From contig CAWHPR010000003.1 in NCBI GenBank assembly GCA_963831295.1, positions 387,746 to 451,745 of the forward strand: 64,000 nt of DNA. The letters are read 5' to 3'. Position numbers and translations under genes: made by a program. The notes under the pieces are model-generated. The model did not search any database, had not been told where the DNA came from, and saw nothing but the letters and a program-made list of their open reading frames with translations. This document shows, piece after piece, positions 9,987 to 62,171 of the stretch. Source of the stretch: an uncultured Thermoleophilia bacterium (GTDB lineage Bacteria; Actinomycetota; Thermoleophilia; UBA2241). The stretch's first letter is position 1. Every line of letters starts with the position of its first letter.

Positions 9987-10420
9987 GCCTGCGCCTCCGC
10001 AGTCGCCGTCTCGGCGTCGGCGGACGGCACCTCCGGCGGTCGAGCCTCGATCGCGTCGACCGGGCAGTTGCGGGCACATGTGCCGCAGCCGATGCAGCGG
10101 TCGCCGTCGAAGAGGATCGTGCGGTAGACGGTCACGCGCGGCGGCACCTCGACGGGGCCGACCGGCTCGTCGCGCATGAGGCGGCGCAGCGCGACGCCGA
10201 GCTGGCCGCGGCGGCTGTCGGCCGGCGCGTCGAGCAGCTGGTGCACGTCGAAGGTCTCGCCGCGCCGGCTCGCGCCGGTCGGACAGTCCTTGGCGCACGT
10301 GCCGCAGCCGATGCAGAGGTCTTCGTGGCGGACGATCTCGCAGCCGATGCTGCCGCTCGAGCTTGCGTGGGTCGCGGGCAGACGCCTGAAGATCGCGCGG
10401 CCGCGGTCGGTGAGCGGCAT
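9983..10420 (-). CDS. 4Fe-4S dicluster ferredoxin-domain protein
   Basis: Intact 145-aa ORF with CIGCGTCAKDCP and CIGCGTCARNCP. Its stop overlaps the downstream GTG (GTGA), and its start overlaps the upstream stop by 1 nt. Confidence 0.8.
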   Translation of the reverse strand: MPLTDRGRAIFRRLPATHASSSGSIGCEIVRHEDLCIGCGTCAKDCPTGASRRGETFDVHQLLDAPADSRRGQLGVALRRLMRDEPVGPVEVPPRVTVYRTILFDGDRCIGCGTCARNCPVDAIEARPPEVPSADAETATAEAQA

Positions 10421-10935
10421 CAGCGCTCACCTCCTGCGCTGGCCGCCACGACGTCCTCGCCGGCCGGTCGTCGCTCGAGCGGCGGCAGGGCGCCGACGAC
10501 GCGGTCCATCTCTCTGACCGCGGCGACGAATCTCGGCGGCTCACCGGCGCTCATCGTGAACATGCGGCAGCGCTCGGGCTCGACGCCGACGCTCTCGAGC
10601 AGACGCTGCACGAACTTGACGCGGTCGATGGCGTTGAAGTTGCCCTCGCGGTAGTGGCACTGGCCCTCGAGGCAGCCCGCCACCATGACTCCGTCGGCGC
10701 CCTCGGCGAGGGCGCTCAGCAGGTGCAGCGGGCTGACCCGGCCGGTGCAGGGCAGCAGGATGAGCCGCACCGTCGGCGGCAGGGGGGTGCGGGCGTTGGC
10801 GCTGGTGTCGGCGGCCGCGTAGGCGCACTCGCGGCAGCAGAAGGCGACGATCGAGCGCTCGCCCTCCGCGGCCGCCACTGCGGCGGCCTCGCGAGGCGCC
10901 GTCAGGGCCGTCGCGCCCTGTGCGGCCGCGGTCAT
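10420..10935 (-). CDS. MvhD-like (F420-non-reducing hydrogenase delta / HdrA-associated) protein
   Basis: The last 171 aa of ORF 10420..15225: MTAAAQGAT..IVAFCCRECAYAAAD..ILLPCTGRVSPLHLLSALAEGADGVMVAGCLEGQCHYREGN. ATGA overlap with the upstream stop at 10932-10935. Confidence 0.8.
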   Translation of the reverse strand: MTAAAQGATALTAPREAAAVAAAEGERSIVAFCCRECAYAAADTSANARTPLPPTVRLILLPCTGRVSPLHLLSALAEGADGVMVAGCLEGQCHYREGNFNAIDRVKFVQRLLESVGVEPERCRMFTMSAGEPPRFVAAVREMDRVVGALPPLERRPAGEDVVAASAGGER

Positions 10936-13900
10936 ACCGTCGCCTCCGCCAGGACCTCGGCGTCCGAGTAGCGGCCGAGCTGCATCGCTCCCGTCGGGCA
11001 CTCGGCCGCGCAGATGCCGCAGCCGCGGCAGATGTTGGGGTCGACGACCGAGTGCGCGTCTGTCCCGGTCGTCAGGTGGATCGCCCCCTGCGGGCAGGCG
11101 TCCTCGCACACGCCGCAGGCGATGCACGCCTCGGGGTCGCTGGCCGCCACCTGGGCGGCGGTCATGGTGTAGCCGCTCGCCAGCATGGCGACCACGCGCG
11201 CGGCCGCCGCCTTCGCCTGGGCGATCGAGTCGGGGATGCTCTTCGGGCCCTGCGCGGTGCCGGCCACGAACATGCCGGCGCGCTGCGTGTCGACTGGGGC
11301 GAGCTTGGGGTGGTACTCGCGGATGAAGCCCGCGGCCCCGGTCTGCACGCCGGCGACGTGGGCGATGTCGCGCGTGCCCTCGCTGGCCTCGAGCCCGGCG
11401 GAGAGCACGACGAGGTCGTAGAGGTCCTCCTGCTTGCGCCCGGTCATCGTGTCCTCGAGGCGGACGCGCAGGCTGCCGTCCTTCTCCTCGAGGATCTCGC
11501 CGACGCGCCCGCGCACGTAGCGCACGCCGCGCTCCTGTACGAGCCGGTAGTACTCCTCGTGGGCCTTGCCGGGCGCGCGCAGGTCGGTGTACCCGATCGT
11601 GACCTCGGCGTCGGGGTAGTGCTGCTTGATGAGCGACGCGTTGAGGGTGGCGAAGAGACAGCAGACGGCGGAGCAGTGCTGGTTGCCGGTGCTCGAGACG
11701 TCGCGCGAGCCGACGCACTGGAGCATGAAGATGCGCTTGGGGACGGCGCCGTCCGACGGCCGGTAGAGCTCGCCCTCGGTCGGGCCGGCGGCCGAGAGGA
11801 GCCGCGAGAGCTGGCCCTGGGTGAGGACGTTGGCGTGACGCCCGTAGCCGAGCGGCGCCTTGCGGGCGGCGTCGAACTGCTGGTGGCCGGTCGCGAGGAT
11901 GACGGCGCCGACGGAGAGCTCCTCGACGGTCTCGGTCTGGTCCCAGTCGATCGCCCCGGACGGGCAGGCGCGGACGCAGGAGTCGCACTCGGAGCAGACC
12001 GCGCAGTTGAGGCAGCGCTGCGCCTCGGCGACGGCCTCCTCGGCCGTGTACCCGCGGCTGACCTCGGCCCAGTCGGTCCGTCGCCGTCACCCCGTCGACC
12101 ATCGCCATCGGCACGCGCTGGCCGGGCTCGATGGCGGCCAGCTCCTCGTCGGTCGGGCGCGCCTCGGGGCGGGCGTCGTCCCAGACGGGCAGCAGGCGCT
12201 CGCCGCGCAGGTGGTTGTGGATGGCGGCGGCGCCGCGGCGGCCGGCGGCGATCGCCTCGATGGCCGTGTAGAAGCCGACGGCCGCCGCGTCGCCGCCGGC
12301 GAAGACGCCCTCGCGGGTCGTCATCATCGTGTCGCGGTCGACGCAGATCTGGCCGTCCTTCAGCTCGAGACCTTCGCAGCCCCGGGCGAAGTCGTCGACC
12401 AGCGCCTGGCCGACGGCGAAGATCACCGAGTCGGCGGCGAGCTCGAACTCGGAGCCCTCGACGGGGACCGGCTGACGCCGACCCGAGGCGTCGGGCTCGC
12501 CGAGCTCGCAGCGCTGTAGCTTGATGCCGGCGACGCGGCCGTCGCCGAGGATCTCGAGCGGCTGGACCAGGAACTCGACCGTGAGGCCCTCCTCGCGCGC
12601 CTCTTCGAGCTCGCTCGCGTTGGCCGGCATCTCGACCTCGGTGCGCCGGTAGACGAGGGTGACGTCGGGCTCGTGTCCGGCGGCGGCCTGCAGGCGGATC
12701 GCGAGCTGCGGGCGGCGTCGAGGGCGACGTCGCCGCCGCCGATGACGACGACCTTCTCGCCGACCGCCGGCGTACCGCCGAGGTTCAGCTCGCGCAGCAT
12801 CTCGACGGCGCGCGTGACGCCGTCGAGGTCGCCGCCGGGGAGGTCGACCTCGGCGCTCTTCTGCAGGCCGGTGGCGAGGTAGACGGCCTTGTAGCCCTGC
12901 TCGAACAGGCCGTCGATGGTGAAGTCGGTCCCGGCCCGCTGCCCGAGCTTGAGCTCGGGGCCGAGGGCCAGCACCTGCTCGATCTCGCGCTGGATCACGT
13001 CGTGCGGCAGGCGGTAGTCGGGGATGCCGGTGCGCAGCATGCCGCCGGCGACCGGCTGGGCCTCGAAGACGGTGACCTTGTAGCCCAGGTTCGCGAGGTC
13101 GCGGGCGCAGGTGAGGCCGGCGGGGCCGGCGCCGACGATCGCGACGGGCTCGTCGTGCACGAGCGGCGCCGGCTGTACCGGCAGCGTCGGGCCGACGCTG
13201 TCGGCGACGAAGCGCTTGAGGCCGGCGATGGCGATCGGCTCGTCCACCGACCCCCGCGCGCAAGCGGTCTCGCAGAGCGCTGTGCAGACGCGCCCGCAGA
13301 CGCTGGGGAAGGGGTTCGGTTCGCTGGCCACGCGGTAGGCGTCCTCGAAGCGGCCGGCCGCCACGAGCGCGACGTAGCCCTGCGCCGAGGTGTGCACCGC
13401 GCAGGCGCTCTTGCAGGGGCTCCAGCCCTTCTTGTCGACGGCGAAGATGCTGGGCACGGCGTTGGCGAAGGGGCGGTAGATCGCCGTGCGCTCGGCGACG
13501 CCCTCCTCGTACGAGCTGGGGTAGTGCACCGGGCAGACGGGCACGCACTCGCCGCAGCCGACGCAGGCCTCGGTGACGTAGCGCGGGTGGTGGCGCAGCG
13601 TGACGCGGAACTCGCCGGGCGGGCCCGAGATCTCGTCGACGTCGGTCAGGGTGTGGATGTGGATGTGACCGTTGAGCGCCGTCGAGGTCAGCCGCGGCGC
13701 CAGCGAGCACATCGCGCAGTCCTCGGTGGGGAAGGTCTTGGCGAGCTTCGCCATGTAGCCGCCGAGCGACTGCTCGCGCTCGACGAGGTGGACGTCGATG
13801 CCGGCCGCGGCGAGCTCCTCGGCGGCGCTCATGCCGGCGATGCCGCCGCCGACGACCAGCGCGGAGCGGCTGAGGAAGGTGCGGCGGCGGGGCAGGTCGC

Positions 13901-14288
13901 TCTGGTGGCGCGCCCGCGCGACGGCGCCCTCGACGATCTTCTTCGCCTTCTCCTGGGCGCGCTCGGGCTCGTGGCGGTGCACGAACGAGCAGCCCTCGCG
14001 GATGTTGGCGAAGGCGACCGCGTTCTCGCCGAGCTTCAGCTCGCGGGCGATGCGGTCGAAGGTCGGGCCCTGGAAGCGCTGCGAGCAGGAGGCGATGACG
14101 ACGTGGTCGAGGCCGCGCTCTTCGACCGCCTCGGCGATGAGCTCGCGGCCCTCGGTGCCGCACATGAACTGGTTGACCGCGACCTCGACGACGCCGTCGA
14201 GGGTGCGGGCGTGGGCGGCGAGCGGCTCCATCTCGACGACGCCGGAGATGTTGCCGCCGCACTCGCAGAGGAAGACGCCGGCTCTCAT
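10932..14288 (-). CDS. Large HdrA-like protein with an inserted GltD/NfnB-like NAD(P)H:FAD module (HdrL-type architecture); 2 frameshifts (near 12705 and 12082)
   Basis: The pieces are:
- MRAGVFLCECGGNISG..ALVVGGGIAGMSAA..TEDCAMCSL..CVGCGECVPVCP
- GltD-like SVCGRVCTALCETAC..VAIVGAGPAGLTCA..VVVIGGGDVALDAAR (ORF 12423..14582)
- AIRLQAAAGHEPDVTLVYRR..VFAGGDAA..AIAAGRRGAAAIH (frame of 10420..15225)
- WAEVSRGYTAEEAVAEAQRCLNCAVCSECDSCVRACP..MLQCVGSRD..CSAVCC..CIACGVCEDACP..CRGCGICAAECP (ORF 10932..11726 and its upstream extension). Confidence 0.8.
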
Positions 14289-15225
14289 CGCGCACCCCCG
14301 GCCTTCGTCGTGGCCCTCGTGGACGAGGTCTTCGCGAGGCGCCGATGCGCTCGAGGAGCGGCTCGACGTCCTGTGAGTGCGTCTCGACGCCGAGCACCGT
14401 GTCGGGGTCGGCGCCCAGCGCCAGCGCCAGGAGCTGCTGCACGTGCAGGTGCACGAACGGGTACTCCTCGTGCGTCGTCGCCGAGATGATGTCGTGGTAG
14501 CGGTCGAACTGCACGTGGCAGTTGGGGCACATGTGCACGCAGACGTCGACCTTCTCCTCGGCCAGCCGGCGCAGTTTCTCACGCGTCACCGCGACCGAGA
14601 TCGACGGGTTCACGAAGCGCTGGCGGAAGCCGGCGCCGCAGTGCGTGGTCTTCTCGTTGTAGGCGCCGGTCGGGACCGCGCCGGCCGGAATCAGGAGCTC
14701 CTCGGGGACCATGAAGTTCTCGCTGCTGCCCATGGTCTCGTCGGGGAAGACCTTGCAGTAGTGGCAGGCCGGGTGGGTCGCGACCTTGAGGCCGTCGAGG
14801 CGACGGCGCACGAGCCCGGGGATGCTCTCGTGCGCCCCCCACAGGATGTCGAGCGCGTGCCGGTGCTCGACGGCGCCGGCCACGCGGTCGTCGTAGCGGC
14901 GGCCGACCTTGGCGAGCACGGCGTTGGTCTGCGCGCGGTACTCGTCGACCTCGAGGATGTTGCGCGCCTTCTTGTTGACCGCGTAGCAGGTCGAGCAGAG
15001 GTAGCTGACGATGGGGTGACCGTCGTCGACGGCGACGCACGCGTTGCGGGCGGCGAGGCCGACGGTCGTCTCGATCGGGATGAGGTCCGAGTAGTACCCG
15101 AGCCCGGTGCAGCAGGTCTGCTGGGGGTTCACCGTGTACTCGATGCCGAAGCGCTCGAAGAGCCACTTCGTCGACGCTTCGACGCCGGGGTACTCGGCGG
15201 AGACCAGGCAGCTGCGGAAGATCAT
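14285..15225 (-). CDS. HdrB-like CCG-domain protein; probable frameshift near 14340
   Basis: MIFRSCLVSAEYPGVEAS..QQTCCTGLGYY..SYLCSTCY..THPACHYC..THCGAGF..VHMCPNCH..VEPLLERIGAS. The listed ORF then reads through 1300 further codons of other genes. One frame gives a TGA at 14285 that overlaps the next ATG (ATGA), matching the coupling pattern of this operon. Confidence 0.75.
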
Positions 15226-15390: not shown

Positions 15391-15632
15391 CGCCATCTCC
15401 CGGCAGACGCTGGTCGCGGGGGCATCCGGGTGCCGTCTGCGAGGTTTTGCGAGAAGCGGCAGGGGTACTCTCGACAAGCAGTACGCCCCCGCTCCCGCAC
15501 GGGGATCACGCCCCGCGAGAGCCAGGTCATCAGGAGGAACGATGGGCCAGGTCTCTCCGCTTCCGTCTTCGCGACCAGCGACGTCCTCCGACGTCGCGCC
15601 CGCAGGCGTCTCGGCCTGCGTCCCCGGTGCGC

Positions 15633-15792
15633 ATGATCGCGACCGACGCGCTGCGCGCTGTGCGGCGCCCGGCTCGAGGAGGGCACACAGCGCTTCATGG
15701 TGGTGTCGCCGCAGTCGGTCGACCGGCCGCTCACCGTGTGCCACACCTGCCGCAACGCGGCGCTGACCGAGGGGTACCGGCCCGCGGGCTGA
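15633..15792 (+). CDS. Small CxxC...CxxC zinc-ribbon-like protein (start uncertain)
   Basis: One frame reads [47 protein letters not shown]-stop (TGA 15790-15792), which is protein-like, unlike the surrounding frames. No clean start exists in that frame. The options are:
- ATG 15633 plus a 1-nt indel
- the strong SD-ATG at 15542 (AGGAGGaacgATG) plus an indel and read-through of an in-frame TGA at 15634. Confidence 0.3.
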
Positions 15793-29253: not shown

Positions 29254-30852
29254 TCACAGGTGCGGCCCGGTGTGACAGCGCTTGCACAGGTCGGATCCCG
29301 GCCACGGCGCGATCTGGTCGCCGCGGGAGTCCGCGGCGCCGTGGCAGTCGTAGCAGATGCGGATGTCGTGCCCCCCGATCTCGGCGGACTGCTGACCGGC
29401 GTGCTGTACCCGCGCCGCCGTCAGCTTGAGATGGCAGTCGTCGCAGCGGTGCGGCCTGCCGACGTGTTCTTCGACATCGAAGTGCGCGGCGTGCTCGGCG
29501 AGCTTCGCCACCTTGATCTCACTGGGCCGTCTGCGCATCTCGGGATGACAGTTCACGCAGTTCTCGGCCCGCAACTCCTGACTGCGGTCGGGATCGTGGT
29601 GGCACTCCTGACACCAGTTGCGGTCCGAGTGGCACACGCCGCAGTCGTCGGGCATGAAGCCGCTGGACGTGTGCGACGCGAGCCAGGTCGTCGGGTGCGG
29701 CATGACAGTCGGGTGGCACCGGCTGCACGACTCGTTCGTGTGGCAGATCGAGCACGTGGCTTCTCCGCTGAGAAGGAACGGCTCGCCGTGCTCGGCCATC
29801 CACGCGGCGGTCTGGTGGTCGTCGGGGATCACCTCTTTGCTGTACGAGCCGTCCGGCAGCCGCTTCTCGCTGCGGTGACACTCCGCGCAGAACGCCGAAG
29901 CGTGGCAGGTCGTGCAGTCGAGCAGGTCCTCGGCGCCCGGCTTGCGGTGACTGCTCGCGATGAACGCCGCCGTGTGATCGGCCGGCACGAGCTCGAAGCC
30001 CGGCGGATGACACGCCCCGCACTCGTCGGGAGCGGCCTCGCCGTCCTCGGTGTGCTGAACGCCGTGGCAGCGATAGCACGACGACATGTCGGGGCGGTCG
30101 GTGGCGCCGGCGCGGTGCGGGAACCTCTCGTGGCACACCTCGCAATCGTAGTCGCGTTCGAAGTGCACGGCGTGCGTGAAGAGCAGGCCGTCCCCCTCGC
30201 TCCTGTCGATGTCGGGGTGGCAGAAGACGCACTGCCCCATCGTGACAGGCCCGTCCACACTGATCGTGAGGGGCGGCCGCGACTCGGGCAGGGGGACGTT
30301 GCGCAGATAGCCCGGTGCGGCAAGCGGCGTGTCGACCCCCTGTTCCCTGTGGCAGGCATCGCAGTGCGCGCGCGCCTCGTGGCACATCATGCAGCCGTTC
30401 GAGCCTCCGCGCTCCACGGCGCCGGCGTGCGGCTCCTCGGTCCAGTCCTCGCTGTGATCCGCGGGCCTGAGCTCGAAGGCCTGCGTGTGGCAGGTGTCGC
30501 ACGAGTCGGCGGCCATGACGCCGTCGGAACCGTGAACGAGCCCGTGACAGGCGAAGCACGTCTCCATCGGCGGCACGTGCGTTGCGCCGCCCTCGTGCGC
30601 CGAACGCACGTGGCACACGCTGCAGTCGACGGTGGCGTGCGCATCGTGTGCGAAGACGAGGCCGGGGTCGCGAGACTCGGCGATGCGCTGGTGACAGGGA
30701 CTGCACGACTCGATGCGCACCGGGCCGGTCAGATCGATCTCGGTGGGCTGTGTCGCGCCCACGCCCGGCTGCAGCGTGCCGGCCAGCACGACGACGACGA
30801 CGGCGATGGCGGTCGCCGCTGTCAGGTACGCGTGTCGGCGGGTCGGTCGCAT
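29254..30852 (-). CDS. Multihaem c-type cytochrome with 20 CXXCH motifs, N-terminal membrane anchor/signal, intact
   Basis: 532-aa ORF. I count 20 CXXCH motifs: CSPCH, CSVCH, CFACH, CDTCH, CMMCH, CDACH, CVFCH, CEVCH, CYRCH, CGACH, CTTCH, CAECH, CSICH, CSRCH, CGVCH, CQECH, CVNCH, CDDCH, CYDCH, CKRCH. The N-terminus is MRPTRRHAYLTAATAIAVVVVVLAG. Confidence 0.9.
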   Translation of the reverse strand: MRPTRRHAYLTAATAIAVVVVVLAGTLQPGVGATQPTEIDLTGPVRIESCSPCHQRIAESRDPGLVFAHDAHATVDCSVCHVRSAHEGGATHVPPMETCFACHGLVHGSDGVMAADSCDTCHTQAFELRPADHSEDWTEEPHAGAVERGGSNGCMMCHEARAHCDACHREQGVDTPLAAPGYLRNVPLPESRPPLTISVDGPVTMGQCVFCHPDIDRSEGDGLLFTHAVHFERDYDCEVCHERFPHRAGATDRPDMSSCYRCHGVQHTEDGEAAPDECGACHPPGFELVPADHTAAFIASSHRKPGAEDLLDCTTCHASAFCAECHRSEKRLPDGSYSKEVIPDDHQTAAWMAEHGEPFLLSGEATCSICHTNESCSRCHPTVMPHPTTWLASHTSSGFMPDDCGVCHSDRNWCQECHHDPDRSQELRAENCVNCHPEMRRRPSEIKVAKLAEHAAHFDVEEHVGRPHRCDDCHLKLTAARVQHAGQQSAEIGGHDIRICYDCHGAADSRGDQIAPWPGSDLCKRCHTGPHL

Positions 30853-30874
30853 ACGTCCCTGCGGGCGGCCCGGT

Positions 30875-31745
30875 CTATCCGCCGAACAGTCCGGCGATGG
30901 CGCCCCCGACCCACTTGAGGGTCGAGTAGAGCGGGTTGGCCTCGAGCACGTCGCGCTTGCCGTGGATCAACTCGGTGTACTCGAGGAAGCCCTCGTTGAC
31001 GTCACCCTTGTGACAGGCGCCGCACGTGTCCGCCAGCCGGCTCTGGTGAACAGGCGACCGGGGATCGGACGACGGGTAGACGTCATGGTAGCCGTGGCAG
31101 TCCCAGCACGCCGGTGCGTCTGTTGCTCCCCGACGGTACGCGCGCCCGTGGTAGTAGTCGTCGTAGCTGTTCCACTCGTCTTCGTGGCACCTGCCGCAGA
31201 CCTCCCAGCCGTCGGCGTGCAGGGCGCGGCGGCCTTCTGGGCTGTCCGCGAGCGCGACGACGCCGTGGCTGCCGTGGCAGTCACCGCAGAGCGGGAACTC
31301 GGCTCCTTCGGGGACGGCGCCGGCATGGTCCTCGACCTTGCCCCGGTGGACGCTGGCCCAGTATGCGCGGCTCTCTTGCTGATGGCAGTTCTTGCAGGCC
31401 AGGCGTGAAACGTGGTCCCAGTTCTCGGACGGCTGGGTGTGCGGCGCCGTGAAGGCGAAGTCGATGTGACAGCCGATGCACTGCACGTCCGCGTGCGGGC
31501 TGGCCGCGAGCTCGTCGGTGTCGACGTAGTAGCTCACGATCTCTCCGCCCTCCGGCCGGACCGAGGTCCTCGTCGTCATGGCAGACGAGGCATCCGGCCC
31601 GCGACGCCGTGGGCAGCGTGAAGTCGACGTCGTATCCGCCGACCTGAGGATCGGTGTCACCGCTCTCGGCGAGCGCCGGGGTCGCCGACGAGAGCGCCAT
31701 CACGCACGCCAGGGCGACGAGCAGGAGCATCTTGCGGGTCGTCAT
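30875..31745 (-). CDS. Heptahaem c-type cytochrome with signal peptide and C-terminal hydrophobic anchor (CbcA-like); 1 frameshift near 31560
   Basis: MTTRKMLLLVALACVMALSSATPALAES..CLVCH (ORF 31281..31745) joins ORF 30875..31660 (CIGCH, CKNCH, CGDCH, CGRCH, CWDCH, CGACH), ending ..LKWVGGAIAGLFGG-stop. ATGA overlap with the cytochrome b stop. Confidence 0.8.
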
Positions 31746-42393: not shown

Positions 42394-44257
42394 CTAGATG
42401 CCCAACGCCTCGCGCTTCGCCGCGATGTGCGCCAGCATCCCGGCGACCGCCTCCTTGGCGTCGGTCTCGACGGCGAGCTTGCCGCCGGTCACGCCGGGGA
42501 GGTCCTGCGTCACGAGCTGCACGAGCCGCGGCGCGCCGGTCACGAAGGGCACCGGGCTCACGTGCGTGTAGAGGCCGAAGGCCAGCGCCGCCATGGCGTC
42601 GATGGTCGCCTTCTGCTCCATGTACTCGGGAGCCGTTGCCACGACTGGCAACGCCGGCACGTCGACGCCGAGAGCGTCGGCGATGGCGCCGACGAGCACC
42701 AGGATGCGGCCGGTGTCGGTGCAGGTGCCGAAGCTCAGCACCGGCGGGATCCCGAGGAGCTCGCAGACGGCCTTCAGGCCGGGCCCGGCGAGCTCCTTCG
42801 CCTCGAGCGTCTCGAGGCCGGCGACCTGGACGGCGGCGTTGCCGCAGCCCATGGCCAGCACGAGGACGTCGTTCTTGATGAGCTCCTTCGCGACCTCGAC
42901 CGTCATGCAGTCCTGCCCGGAGTCGCGCAGCGTGGTGCAGCTGACGAGTCCGGCGACGCCCTTGAGGGTGCCGTTCTTGATCACGTCGAGCAGCGGGTCG
43001 AGCGAGCCGCCGAGGGCGCCGAGGATGCTCTCCGTCGAGAAGCCTGCGACGGCGTCGCCGGTGCGCAGCTTGGGCGCGCCGTTGCCCATCGCCTTGCGCT
43101 TTGGGTAGTTGGCGACGGCCATGTCGATGAGCTGCTGCGCCTGACCGGCGGCCTTGGCGGCGTCGAAGATGACGCCCTCGTCCATGCCGGGGACGTTGAC
43201 CAGGTCGCTCACGGGCACGAGCAGCGTGCCGTGCCGGTGGCAGGTGTCGGCCAACGTCGGCACGGTGCAGTTCATGTCGGCGGCGAACACGTCGAGGCCG
43301 CCGGTCGCCACGGCGAGTTCCTCGTTCAGCCAGTTGCCGGTGAGGCCGACGAAGACGTCGTCCACCTCGAAGCGCTGGACGAGCTCCTGGCCGGTCTCGA
43401 TGGAGCCGACGATGCGCAGGCCCTTGGCGCCGGCCGCCTTGGCCTTCGCCTGGGCGGCCTCCATGCGGGCCGCGTCGATCAGCGCTGCGCCCATCATGGG
43501 CTCGTGACCGTTCACGGCGATGTTGACGTAGTCGCCGTCGATGATGCCGAGGTCGGTCTTGATCGCGTGCGGCGTCGGCGTGCCGAAGAGGGCGTCCTGG
43601 ACGAACTCGAGCGGCACCTGCACGCCGTAGGCGGTGGCGATGCCGAGGCGCAGACCTTTGAGGGCGAGCGAGACGTAGTCGCCGTTGACGTTGGTGAGGC
43701 AGTTGGCGGTCGCGACCGTGTTCTCCTGGAGGGCGCCGCCGGGGAAGATGCCGAGCTCCTCCCACACCTTCTGACGCGGCGCCGGGGCGAAGGCCTTGAC
43801 CAGCGGCGAGGGATCCTTGTGGTCGCGCGCCAGCTCGGCGATGAGCGCGGTCGAGAGCCGCTTGGGCAGCGTGTCCCGGGGCTCGACCGCGCGTGCCGAC
43901 GACGCCGGCGAGCGTCTCGAGCTTGCTCCAGTCCTTGACCTCGAACGTACCGCCCGGCTTGGCCTCGGCGAGCGTCTTGAACACTTCGTTGGCGTGGTAC
44001 ATGTACGTCGCGGTGCCCATCGTGTTCTGCAGCAAGAAGTTGCGCATCGCCATGCCGTCGGCGTCGATGCCGCAGACGCCGCGCGGCGCTTTGGCTGTGA
44101 TACGGCACGGACCCTGCGAGCAGAGCGAGCAGCGGATGCCGCCCTCGCAGAAGCTGCAGCGCTTGCCCTGCGCCTCCATGCGGTCCCAGACCGTCTCCTC
44201 GCCGGCGGCGCGGGCCCTCTCGACCATGGTGTTGACTGAGCCGTGGTAACTGTCCAT
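42394..44257 (-). CDS. cooS: Anaerobic Ni-Fe carbon monoxide dehydrogenase catalytic subunit CooS; 1 frameshift near 43890
   Basis: ATG 44257 lies 4 nt after GGAGG. MDSYHGSVNTMVERARAAGEETVWDRMEAQGKRCSFCEGGIRCSLCSQGPCRI..GVCGIDADGMAMRNFL (frame of 42152..44719) joins ORF 42394..43767 (..NIAVNGHEP..VSCTTLRD..LAMGCGNAA..SFGTCTDTGR..ATAPEYMEQKA..). Confidence 0.9.
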
Positions 44258-44384
44258 CGGACCTCCGGTTCTTGGGCGACCCGTCATGGGCGCCGGGTGG
44301 GTGCGGTGAGTGCGATCGTGCGTGGGCACGGGTGCGGAGTCTACGACCGGGTCAACGGACGCAGGCTCGGGTGGGGTCGGCCGG

Positions 44385-61277: not shown

Positions 61278-61690
61278 CGGATGCCGCCTCGGATGCTGCA
61301 CCCAGAGTGGTGCGCATCGCTCCGAACGAGCAACTTAGCGTGCAGCTCAGCGTCGCCCGGCTGGGCGCCGCGCTCGGCATGGAGCAGCTGCGCGCGAACG
61401 TCTACTCGCTCGCGGAGGGCTCGATGTCGCAGCACCTCCACCGCCGGCAGGAGGAGCTCTACATCGTGCTCGACGGCACGGCCATGATCGACGTCGAGGG
61501 CGGCAAGCACAAGGTCGGGCCACGGGAGGCCATCGCCGTGCCGGCGCGGACGTGGCGCAAGGTGTCCAACGCGGGCGTTGGCCCGCTCATCTTCCTCTGC
61601 GTGGCCGCGTCGGCAGTCGATGACGACTCCGAGATCTCCCCGAGCGAGGACCCGGAGGCGGTGCGTCGTCTCTGGGGTCTGCGAAGCTGA
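61274..61690 (+). CDS. Cupin domain protein
   Basis: GTG 61274 overlaps the upstream stop (GTGA). Sequence: ..ANVYSLAEGSMSQHLHRRQEELYIVLDGTAMIDVEGGKHKVGPREAIAVPARTWRKVSNAG. Confidence 0.7.
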   Translation: MTDAASDAAPRVVRIAPNEQLSVQLSVARLGAALGMEQLRANVYSLAEGSMSQHLHRRQEELYIVLDGTAMIDVEGGKHKVGPREAIAVPARTWRKVSNAGVGPLIFLCVAASAVDDDSEISPSEDPEAVRRLWGLRS

Positions 61691-61721
61691 GCCAACCGCG
61701 TCGACCGAGAGAGGAGCCAGC

Positions 61722-62171
61722 ATGCTGAAAGAGGGCGACAGGGCGCCGGCCGTGACCGGCGCATCCTACGACGGGCGCGCCTTCGACCTGGGTTCGCCCG
61801 GCGTTCGGACCGTCCTGTTCTTCTACCTCAAGGCCGCGACCGGGGGCTGAACGACCGAAGCCGTTGAGTTCAACGGTCTGATCGACGAGTTCGAGGCGCT
61901 CGGCGCCCAGGTGATCGGCGCCAGCGTGGACCAGCCCGCGGCGAACGAACGCTGGGCACAGAAGCACGATCTGCGGATGCCGCTGATCAGCGACCCCGGG
62001 GAGCACGCGGTGGCGACCGCCTTCGGCGTCGCGCGGCCGCTCGTCGGCGTCGCCAAGCGGACGACGTGGCTGATCGACCCCGACGGCACCCTGCGCAAGG
62101 TCTACCCGAAGGTCACGCCCAAGGGCCACGCGGCCGACGTGCTCGCCGCGGCGAAGGAGATCTGGGGCTAG
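61722..62171 (+). CDS. bcp: Bcp-type peroxiredoxin with in-frame TGA (61848-61850) at the peroxidatic-Cys position: candidate selenocysteine peroxiredoxin
   Basis: ATG 61722 lies 5 nt after GAGAGGAG. MLKEGDRAPAVTGASYDGRAFDLGSPGVRTVLFFYLKAATGG-TGA-TTEAVEFNGLIDEFEALGAQVIGASVDQPAANERWAQKHDLRMPLISDPG..WLIDPDGTLRKVY. ORFs 61578..61850 and 61911..62171 are in the same frame (offset 63 nt). Bcp homologues carry ..GC(T/P)xE.. at this point. Confidence 0.7.
61861..61876 (+). other. Putative bacterial SECIS hairpin
   Basis: ccgttg agtt caacgg is a 6-bp stem with apical loop AGUU. It starts 11 nt after the UGA, which is the spacing of characterised bacterial SECIS elements. Confidence 0.4.

Follow-up and report, generated by a model that had tools for sequence, protein, structure and literature searches.

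Peroxiredoxins of the COG1225/Bcp type that carry selenocysteine (Sec) in a TxxU active site have been recognised as a bacterial selenoprotein family since 2004–2006 and rank among the commonest of such families, with 43 genes counted in Sargasso Sea sequences and 12 in genomes complete at that time (PMC1088965, PMC1794560), and the family is listed in current reviews (PMC9312934, PMC13188914). Here we describe a gene at positions 61722–62171 (+) of a 64,000 nt stretch of DNA from an uncultured Thermoleophilia bacterium (assembly GCA_963831295.1, contig CAWHPR010000003.1, positions 387,746–451,745 of the forward strand; hereafter the window, whose own numbering is used throughout), in which an in-frame TGA very probably encodes Sec at the peroxidatic residue of a thiol peroxidase of the Bcp/PrxQ type. 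The initial annotation of the window, made from the letters alone, had described Sec-peroxiredoxins as known in a few anaerobes; they are not so restricted, forming one of the commonest bacterial selenoprotein families.

The predicted protein shares with the bacterial Sec-peroxiredoxin family (COG1225/Bcp, PF00578; example WP_011365628.1) the Pfam domain and the placement of Sec at the peroxidatic Cys, and likewise has Cys-form orthologues and a candidate Sec insertion sequence (SECIS) directly 3′ of the UGA within the coding region (PMC1088965, PMC9312934, PMC13188914). Judged by the descriptions of that family, the window gene differs in belonging to a distinct, Thermoleophilia-wide clade, in its motif, which is TGGU rather than TPGC/U, and in a hairpin that is nearly invariant, minimal, and placed at the shortest allowed spacing of 16 nt. 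PrxU of Eubacterium acidaminophilum (NF040737), the reference Sec-peroxiredoxin in reviews, also uses Sec as the peroxidatic residue, however it represents a different peroxiredoxin subfamily, with the window protein scoring 36 bits against a cut-off of 270 and being ~80 residues shorter than the NF040737 model. The window gene enlarges a selenoprotein family that is already well known and changes no concept; its interest lies partly in marking as probable Sec users the source organism and, by extension, a large Thermoleophilia clade that occurs in sediments, peat, and sludge and is mostly uncultured.

The gene and its active site

The locus reads as a single gene of 149 codons followed by a TAG stop, with the TGA at 61848–61850 (context FFYLKAATGG-*-TTEAVEF) as its sole internal stop. 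Its features are as follows.

61710–61716, plus strand: Shine-Dalgarno-like AGAGGAG, 5 nt before the ATG, read from the sequence
61722–62171, plus strand: complete gene of the predicted Sec-containing Bcp/PrxQ-type peroxiredoxin, with UGA as Sec at codon 43 (translation, Pfam, PDB homologues)
61722–61847, plus strand: N-terminal 42 codons, 5′ of the Sec codon, conserved in 62 orthologues
61827–61829, plus strand: codon 36, CTC (Leu), at the Pro position of the PxxxTxxC/U motif (orthologue comparison)
61839–61850, plus strand: active-site T-G-G-U (TxxU), from Thr40 (ACC) to the predicted Sec43 (UGA), aligned with T-P-G-C of Xanthomonas BCP
61848–61850, plus strand: in-frame UGA, probably read as Sec, the peroxidatic residue (TGA conserved in orthologues)
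61851–62168, plus strand: C-terminal 106 codons, 3′ of the Sec codon, called publicly as a “redoxin” fragment of 81–107 aa
61857–61877, plus strand: synonymously constrained stretch, codons 46–52, GAA GCC GTT GAG TTC AAC GGT (codon entropy; proportion of synonymous differences, pS)
61860–61877, plus strand: candidate SECIS hairpin, 7-bp stem GCCGUUG/CAACGGU, apical loop AGUU at 61867–61870 (RNAalifold, 60 distinct sequences)
62058–62060, plus strand: Arg113 (CGG), the conserved peroxiredoxin active-site arginine

The two open reading frames (ORFs) originally listed for this region do lie in one frame, with positions 61578, 61722, and 61911 all 0 modulo 3 and the TGA as the only interruption. 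The start listed for the N-terminal ORF, 61578, had to be abandoned, being a spurious TTG inside an upstream cupin gene; the ATG at 61722, the start codon common to the orthologues (M/V-LKEGDK), is the real start. TGA terminates 33 of 46 ORFs of the window genome supported by GC content at third codon positions (GC3), which speaks against any global reassignment of the code. Rfam, at gathering thresholds, and ARAGORN found neither an RNA family nor a tRNA in the window.

With Cys substituted for the stop, the product matches the Pfam family AhpC-TSA (PF00578) over nearly the whole profile (positions 2–123 of 124, E = 2.4e-28, 99 bits against a cut-off of 26), with the BCP/PrxQ of Xanthomonas (PDB 5iph and 3gkk, E about 1e-19) as the closest solved structures. 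The stop is matched by the peroxidatic Cys of Xanthomonas BCP, within FYPKDSTPGCTTE, and, together with the full-length AhpC-TSA match, this alignment confirms that the TGA occupies the catalytic Cys position of a Bcp-type peroxiredoxin, as had been proposed. Arg113 is invariant in the alignment and matches the Arg of ERSTFLL in the Xanthomonas enzyme. The TxxU motif is that of the known peroxiredoxin selenoprotein family (PMC1088965, PMC13188914), with Thr40 and the Cys/Sec position of the PxxxTxxC motif both present and aligned, and the motif Pro replaced by Leu. The curated NCBIfam models for PrxQ/BCP all fall below their cut-offs (NF053650, 71 bits against 260; NF006960, 69.5 bits against 140), and on these scores the window protein is placed in the BCP neighbourhood rather than as an equivalog of the curated enzymes.

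Xanthomonas campestris BCP/PrxQ (PDB 3gkk, 3gkn, and the 5iiz series) aligns with the window protein through FYPKxxTxGC/U-TTE and the active-site Arg, however the Xanthomonas enzyme uses Cys as its catalytic residue and has a second Cys in DNFCAKQ, which we take to be the resolving Cys, and to which Ala79 of the window protein corresponds. The other BCP resolving position, that of the CxxxxC motif, is Val48, and the window protein is entirely free of Cys; it should therefore act as a 1-Sec enzyme. BCPs with a single Cys exist, and the lack of a resolving Cys is compatible with membership of the family. Cys is likewise absent from 22 of the 63 Sec forms compared (the window protein included), with a further 39 having one Cys, usually at alignment column 144. 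At this column, which is Ala in the window (62151–62153), Cys is found in 32 of 62 distinct orthologue sequences (ADCREIWG), and may represent a clade-specific resolving Cys.

Conservation of the UGA codon and of both gene halves

A scan of species-representative genomes yielded 80 loci, selected through peptide patterns remote from the TGA, with loci L001–L071 being metagenome-assembled genomes (MAGs) of Thermoleophilia/Actinomycetota at 65–91% identity. TGA stands at the catalytic codon in all 70 of these loci that cover the site, five with assembly frameshifts in the gene included, and in 62 of 62 aligned orthologues; the distant homologues, at 41–47% identity, have Cys in seven cases (among L072–L079) and TGA in one (L080, from Terriglobia). 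Metagenome contigs were scanned for TGA, TGC, or TGT before the hairpin and gave at least 120 matches, with TGA in 120 of 120 among the matches listed, the upstream frame open in all of them, and 109 distinct peptides represented. This recurrence bears directly on the possibility that TGC or TGT was turned into TGA by an error of sequencing or assembly. Indel-type frameshifts are indeed found in the window and in long-read MAG loci, with those of L030, L067, L068, L070, and L071 lying inside the prx gene, however the TGA recurs in independent assemblies from many samples and from different assemblers (contig name styles k141_, k87_, NODE_, and contig_), and the assembly errors seen are indels rather than a substitution giving TGA, making an error of this kind extremely improbable.

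Pairwise protein identity among the 63 aligned Sec forms is 62–89%, with ratios of nonsynonymous to synonymous substitution (dN/dS) of 0.21 for codons 2–42 and 0.29 for codons 53–149 at a dS of 0.6–0.8, indicating purifying selection on both halves of the gene. Conservation of the 42 N-terminal codons across 62 orthologues, with a dN/dS of 0.21 and a pS of 0.49, shows that they are translated and selected. The window copy shows no nonsynonymous excess over the family, with proportions of nonsynonymous differences of 0.16 and 0.14 in the two halves compared with family means of 0.14 and 0.16, and has three unique residues. A pseudogene, in which a TGC to TGA nonsense mutation arose in a genome or assembly full of broken genes, might be suspected from the many window genes broken over more than one frame (the HdrA-like region at 10420–15225, for one, occupies three) and from the Leu at the conserved motif Pro of the window copy. 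Such a mutation would account neither for a TGA held by 70 of 70 related genomes and by 120 of 120 among the listed metagenome matches, nor for the selection on both halves and the normal divergence of the window copy, and we consider it very improbable.

Public databases present the family quite differently, with 118 of the best 120 database homologues being C-terminal fragments of 81–107 aa that begin after the stop, and the remaining two being full-length proteins, both with Cys (GGCTTEA). The called starts of the fragments are scattered over codons 44, 45, 53, 54, 62, or 64, and no in-frame start is conserved 3′ of the UGA; this is the pattern that gene callers make of a selenoprotein family. 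The annotations would agree with a UGA that is a true stop, ending a 42-residue peptide that is possibly followed by a separately initiated C-terminal redoxin fragment, as in a split gene. Against such a split speak the scattered starts, the loss of the catalytic residue from both fragments, and the purifying selection that the N-terminal 42 codons share with the rest of the gene, and it would leave the constrained hairpin and the full-length Cys orthologues described below unexplained, so that termination at this codon is very unlikely. Taken together, the conserved TGA, the fragment pattern, the two-sided selection, the normal window copy, and the ordinary use of TGA as a stop exclude that the TGA arose by nonsense mutation or miscalling of a base, or that the gene is split. 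The comparison also exposes a systematic annotation error, in that 118 of the best 120 database entries, an NCBI MAG protein included, lack the catalytic residue.

The distant Bcp homologue of the Terriglobia MAG (L080, 5275–5703, 41% identity) has TGA at the catalytic codon within TPG-U-TKEACEF, followed by a different predicted hairpin, whose loop GUU derives from the conserved Glu-Phe codons (GAG UUU), compared with the loop AGUU from GAG UUC in the window. These Glu-Phe codons may predispose the Bcp family to evolving SECIS elements. One locus labelled “Deltaproteobacteria bacterium” (L028, JBLMXT010000053.1) encodes an orthologue with 81% identity to the window protein and shares the TGA and the hairpin; mis-binning of a Thermoleophilia contig is the probable explanation, with horizontal transfer as the alternative. 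Two assemblies each contain two Sec-prx copies on separate contigs, DAIQNY01 (L006 and L016, 88% and 81% identity to the window protein) and CAVOGK01 (L017 and L022, 78% and 77%), the copies being either paralogues or mixed strains within one bin.

The candidate SECIS hairpin and its natural controls

The hairpin CCGTTG-AGTT-CAACGG, noted previously at 61861–61876 from the 11th nt after the TGA, is present as described, and one G-U pair extends it to 61860–61877. Considered on its own it does not exceed chance, with a z-score of −1.67 for the fold of 71 nt and comparable hairpins following ~9.5% of arbitrary window positions; as these single-sequence statistics are not significant they were rejected as evidence, and the significance of the hairpin derives from comparative data only. 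The RNAalifold consensus of 60 distinct sequences contains the 7-bp stem GCCGUUG/CAACGG(C/U) with the AGUU loop and nothing else, with a minimum free energy (MFE) of −10.2 kcal/mol for the consensus and −8.8 kcal/mol for the window.

Codons 46–52, which encode the hairpin, show a pS of 0.036 compared with 0.49 and 0.42 in the flanks, and a synonymous codon entropy of about 0 compared with about 1 bit elsewhere, with free synonymous variation in the pair of Thr codons that separates the UGA from the constrained stretch. The third-position bases of the stem each match the need to pair with a fixed first-position base. Val48 is encoded by GTT in 71 of 71 sequences, a codon that is the rarest for Val elsewhere in the gene (14 of 845), and its U pairs with the A that opens the Asn codon; Ala47 is GCC throughout, its C pairing with the first G of the Gly codon; and Gly52 is GGC or GGT in 70 of 71 sequences, both C and U being able to pair with G, and GGA once. 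The changes seen in the stem (AAC to AAT, AAC to AGC, GGC to GGT) all give G-U wobbles, with the GGA codon producing the lone exception, a G-A mismatch at the closing pair. The six inner pairs and the AGUU loop are kept in 71 of 71 sequences and the closing pair in 70 of 71. This pattern of codon use indicates that the hairpin is held at synonymous sites by base-pairing.

The published model of bacterial SECIS elements (bSECIS) requires a loop of 3–9 nt with a G in its first two positions, a stem of 4–16 bp, 16–37 nt between the UGA and the loop, and an MFE of −7.5 kcal/mol or lower (PMC13188914, Fig. 2). The hairpin of the window agrees with each of these, having a loop of 4 nt with G at position 2 followed by U, a stem of 7 bp, and a spacing of 16 nt, the lower limit of the model, in line with the earlier description of a typical bacterial SECIS distance with G and U in the loop. 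It shares with the consensus bSECIS of Zhang and Gladyshev, summarised in PMC13188914, the position of the stem-loop 3′ of the UGA, the small loop with G then U, the spacing, and the stability. In contrast, it has no sequence similarity to the SECIS elements of E. coli, of which fdhF is the prototype, and forms a simple stem with no bulge.

An alignment with Cys-containing orthologues, suggested at the outset as a check, proved possible, with two TGC forms (P0001 and P0002) found in the same neighbourhood as that of the window, consisting of MetW, a metallo-β-lactamase-fold hydrolase, (a cupin), the peroxiredoxin, and a convergent HD/YhaM-like gene. Judged by this synteny they are true orthologues and, being 84–85% identical to Sec forms, they are nested within the Sec clade. 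P0001 combines TGC with five substitutions in the constrained stretch (GAG GCG AAG GAG TTC AAC GCC), which abolish the hairpin, while P0002 has TGC with the hairpin still intact, suggesting a recent conversion from Sec to Cys. The release of the constraint where the TGA is gone ties the hairpin to decoding of the UGA. Codon choice dictated by pairing, together with two Cys orthologues in which the hairpin is respectively lost and intact, offers a clean natural test set for SECIS prediction.

Probable selenocysteine decoding and the surrounding genes

The conserved TGA, the selection on both sides of it, the Cys orthologues, and the constrained, bSECIS-conforming hairpin support the proposal of a probable selenoprotein, with the remaining doubt stemming from the Sec machinery of the genome. 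Several observations weigh against this reading. In the window and 165 loci, amounting to 2.0 Mb of sequence that all flanks the same locus, tblastn searches with SelA, SelB, and SelD gave no genuine match, and ARAGORN detected no tRNA-Sec; since the whole of this sequence surrounds one locus, the result says little about the genome as a whole. The queries were the E. coli proteins, with SelA and SelD confirmed against PDB 8uzw and 3u0o and the SelB query being provisional. A search of titles and abstracts in the searchable library found no paper connecting Thermoleophilia with Sec. The HdrA-like protein and the two MvhD/FlpD domains encoded in the window are Cys forms and give no second witness of Sec use, families that are often selenoproteins elsewhere. 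The hairpin shows wobble changes only and no compensatory covariation, double changes not being observable because the hairpin is nearly invariant. Lastly, the Pro that the initial annotation had cited as part of the usual motif is absent from the window, with codon 36 encoding Leu there and in none of the 62 orthologues, which have Pro in 59 cases and Gly in three; the Leu could reflect a genuine replacement with an effect on the active site, or else a wrong base in the assembly.

The lack of any Sec gene or tRNA-Sec in the 2.0 Mb around the locus, and of any literature link between Thermoleophilia and Sec, would also fit a UGA that is recoded non-canonically, whether through hairpin-stimulated read-through that inserts Cys, Trp, or another residue, or through a divergent decoding system without SelA, SelB, SelC, and SelD. 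However, the UGA stands where this family has its redox-active Cys, and Sec forms of the family are documented in number (PMC1088965, PMC1794560). The hairpin, down to the G-U of its loop, conforms to the bSECIS model of the SelB type (PMC13188914), and Rubrobacter, for which Sec use is on record (PMC1794560, Table 4), belongs to the neighbouring class, leaving non-canonical recoding very unlikely. No Thermoleophilia or Rubrobacter genus is mentioned in the tRNA-Sec survey supplements (PMC5330540).

If the UGA is indeed decoded as Sec, a ribosome arriving at codon 43 would meet the mRNA hairpin (GCCGUUG-AGUU-CAACGGU) 10–27 nt further 3′ which, acting as a bacterial SECIS as in the established bacterial pathway, would recruit SelB-GTP-Sec-tRNA(Sec). 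With the SelB complex bound to the hairpin loop, Sec would be inserted in place of termination, and the full enzyme of 149 residues would be expected to reduce peroxides via a cycle from selenolate to selenenic acid. As the protein lacks Cys, with both resolving positions occupied by other residues, the selenenic acid would presumably be reduced directly by an external thiol, for example thioredoxin, in a mechanism of the “1-Cys” type. The clade may constitute a class-wide, wholly Cys-free “1-Sec” PrxQ with a nearly invariant minimal SECIS at the lowest allowed spacing.

The only SelA-like match, in L053 (14295–15683, −; 23% identity), was rejected, being a lyase of the DgaE family (TIGR01437) that scores 43 bits against the SelA cut-off of 268. 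In Thermoleophilia UBA6103 the gene of this pyridoxal phosphate-dependent enzyme, a relative of SelA, follows the Sec-prx gene ~4 kb downstream. A search of PLSDB found no actinobacterial SelA among the matches listed, which are mainly proteobacterial. Other in-frame TGA codons in the window and loci with coding-type GC3 on both sides were, beyond prx, only ordinary gene ends abutting the next gene. The second in-frame stop of the window, at 15634, had been rated a much weaker case, and justly so, as no coding signal is seen around 15430–15636 (+); it sits between the divergent HdrB-like gene, which starts near 15225 (−), and a plus-strand gene from 15800.

The genes at 7572–15225 (−) form a cluster of an HdrB-like protein (CCG domain), the HdrA-like flavoprotein, and the two MvhD/FlpD domains, as identified by Pfam, with the MvhD and HdrA motifs read by eye as the Cys forms FCCRECAY, FYCKECAG, EDCAMC, and NDCGQC. 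The HdrA-like gene extends across three frames, implying at least two frameshifts, and many of the GC3-supported ORFs of the window overlap or abut in different frames, with frameshifts also found within the prx gene of five MFD MAG loci, whose contigs have names in the contig_ style. The broken frames look as if indels in the assembly, and not a general decay of genes, had produced them. Elsewhere the window encodes a protein of the Prismane/CO-dehydrogenase family (42394–44283, −; E = 1e-112) and a multi-haem cytochrome c (29254–30966, −), and these, taken with the Hdr/Mvh genes, suggest an organism that lives as an anaerobe or facultative anaerobe. Among the related contigs, some are labelled as sediment, activated-sludge, or bioreactor metagenomes, or belong to MAGs named bog, fen, or palsa.

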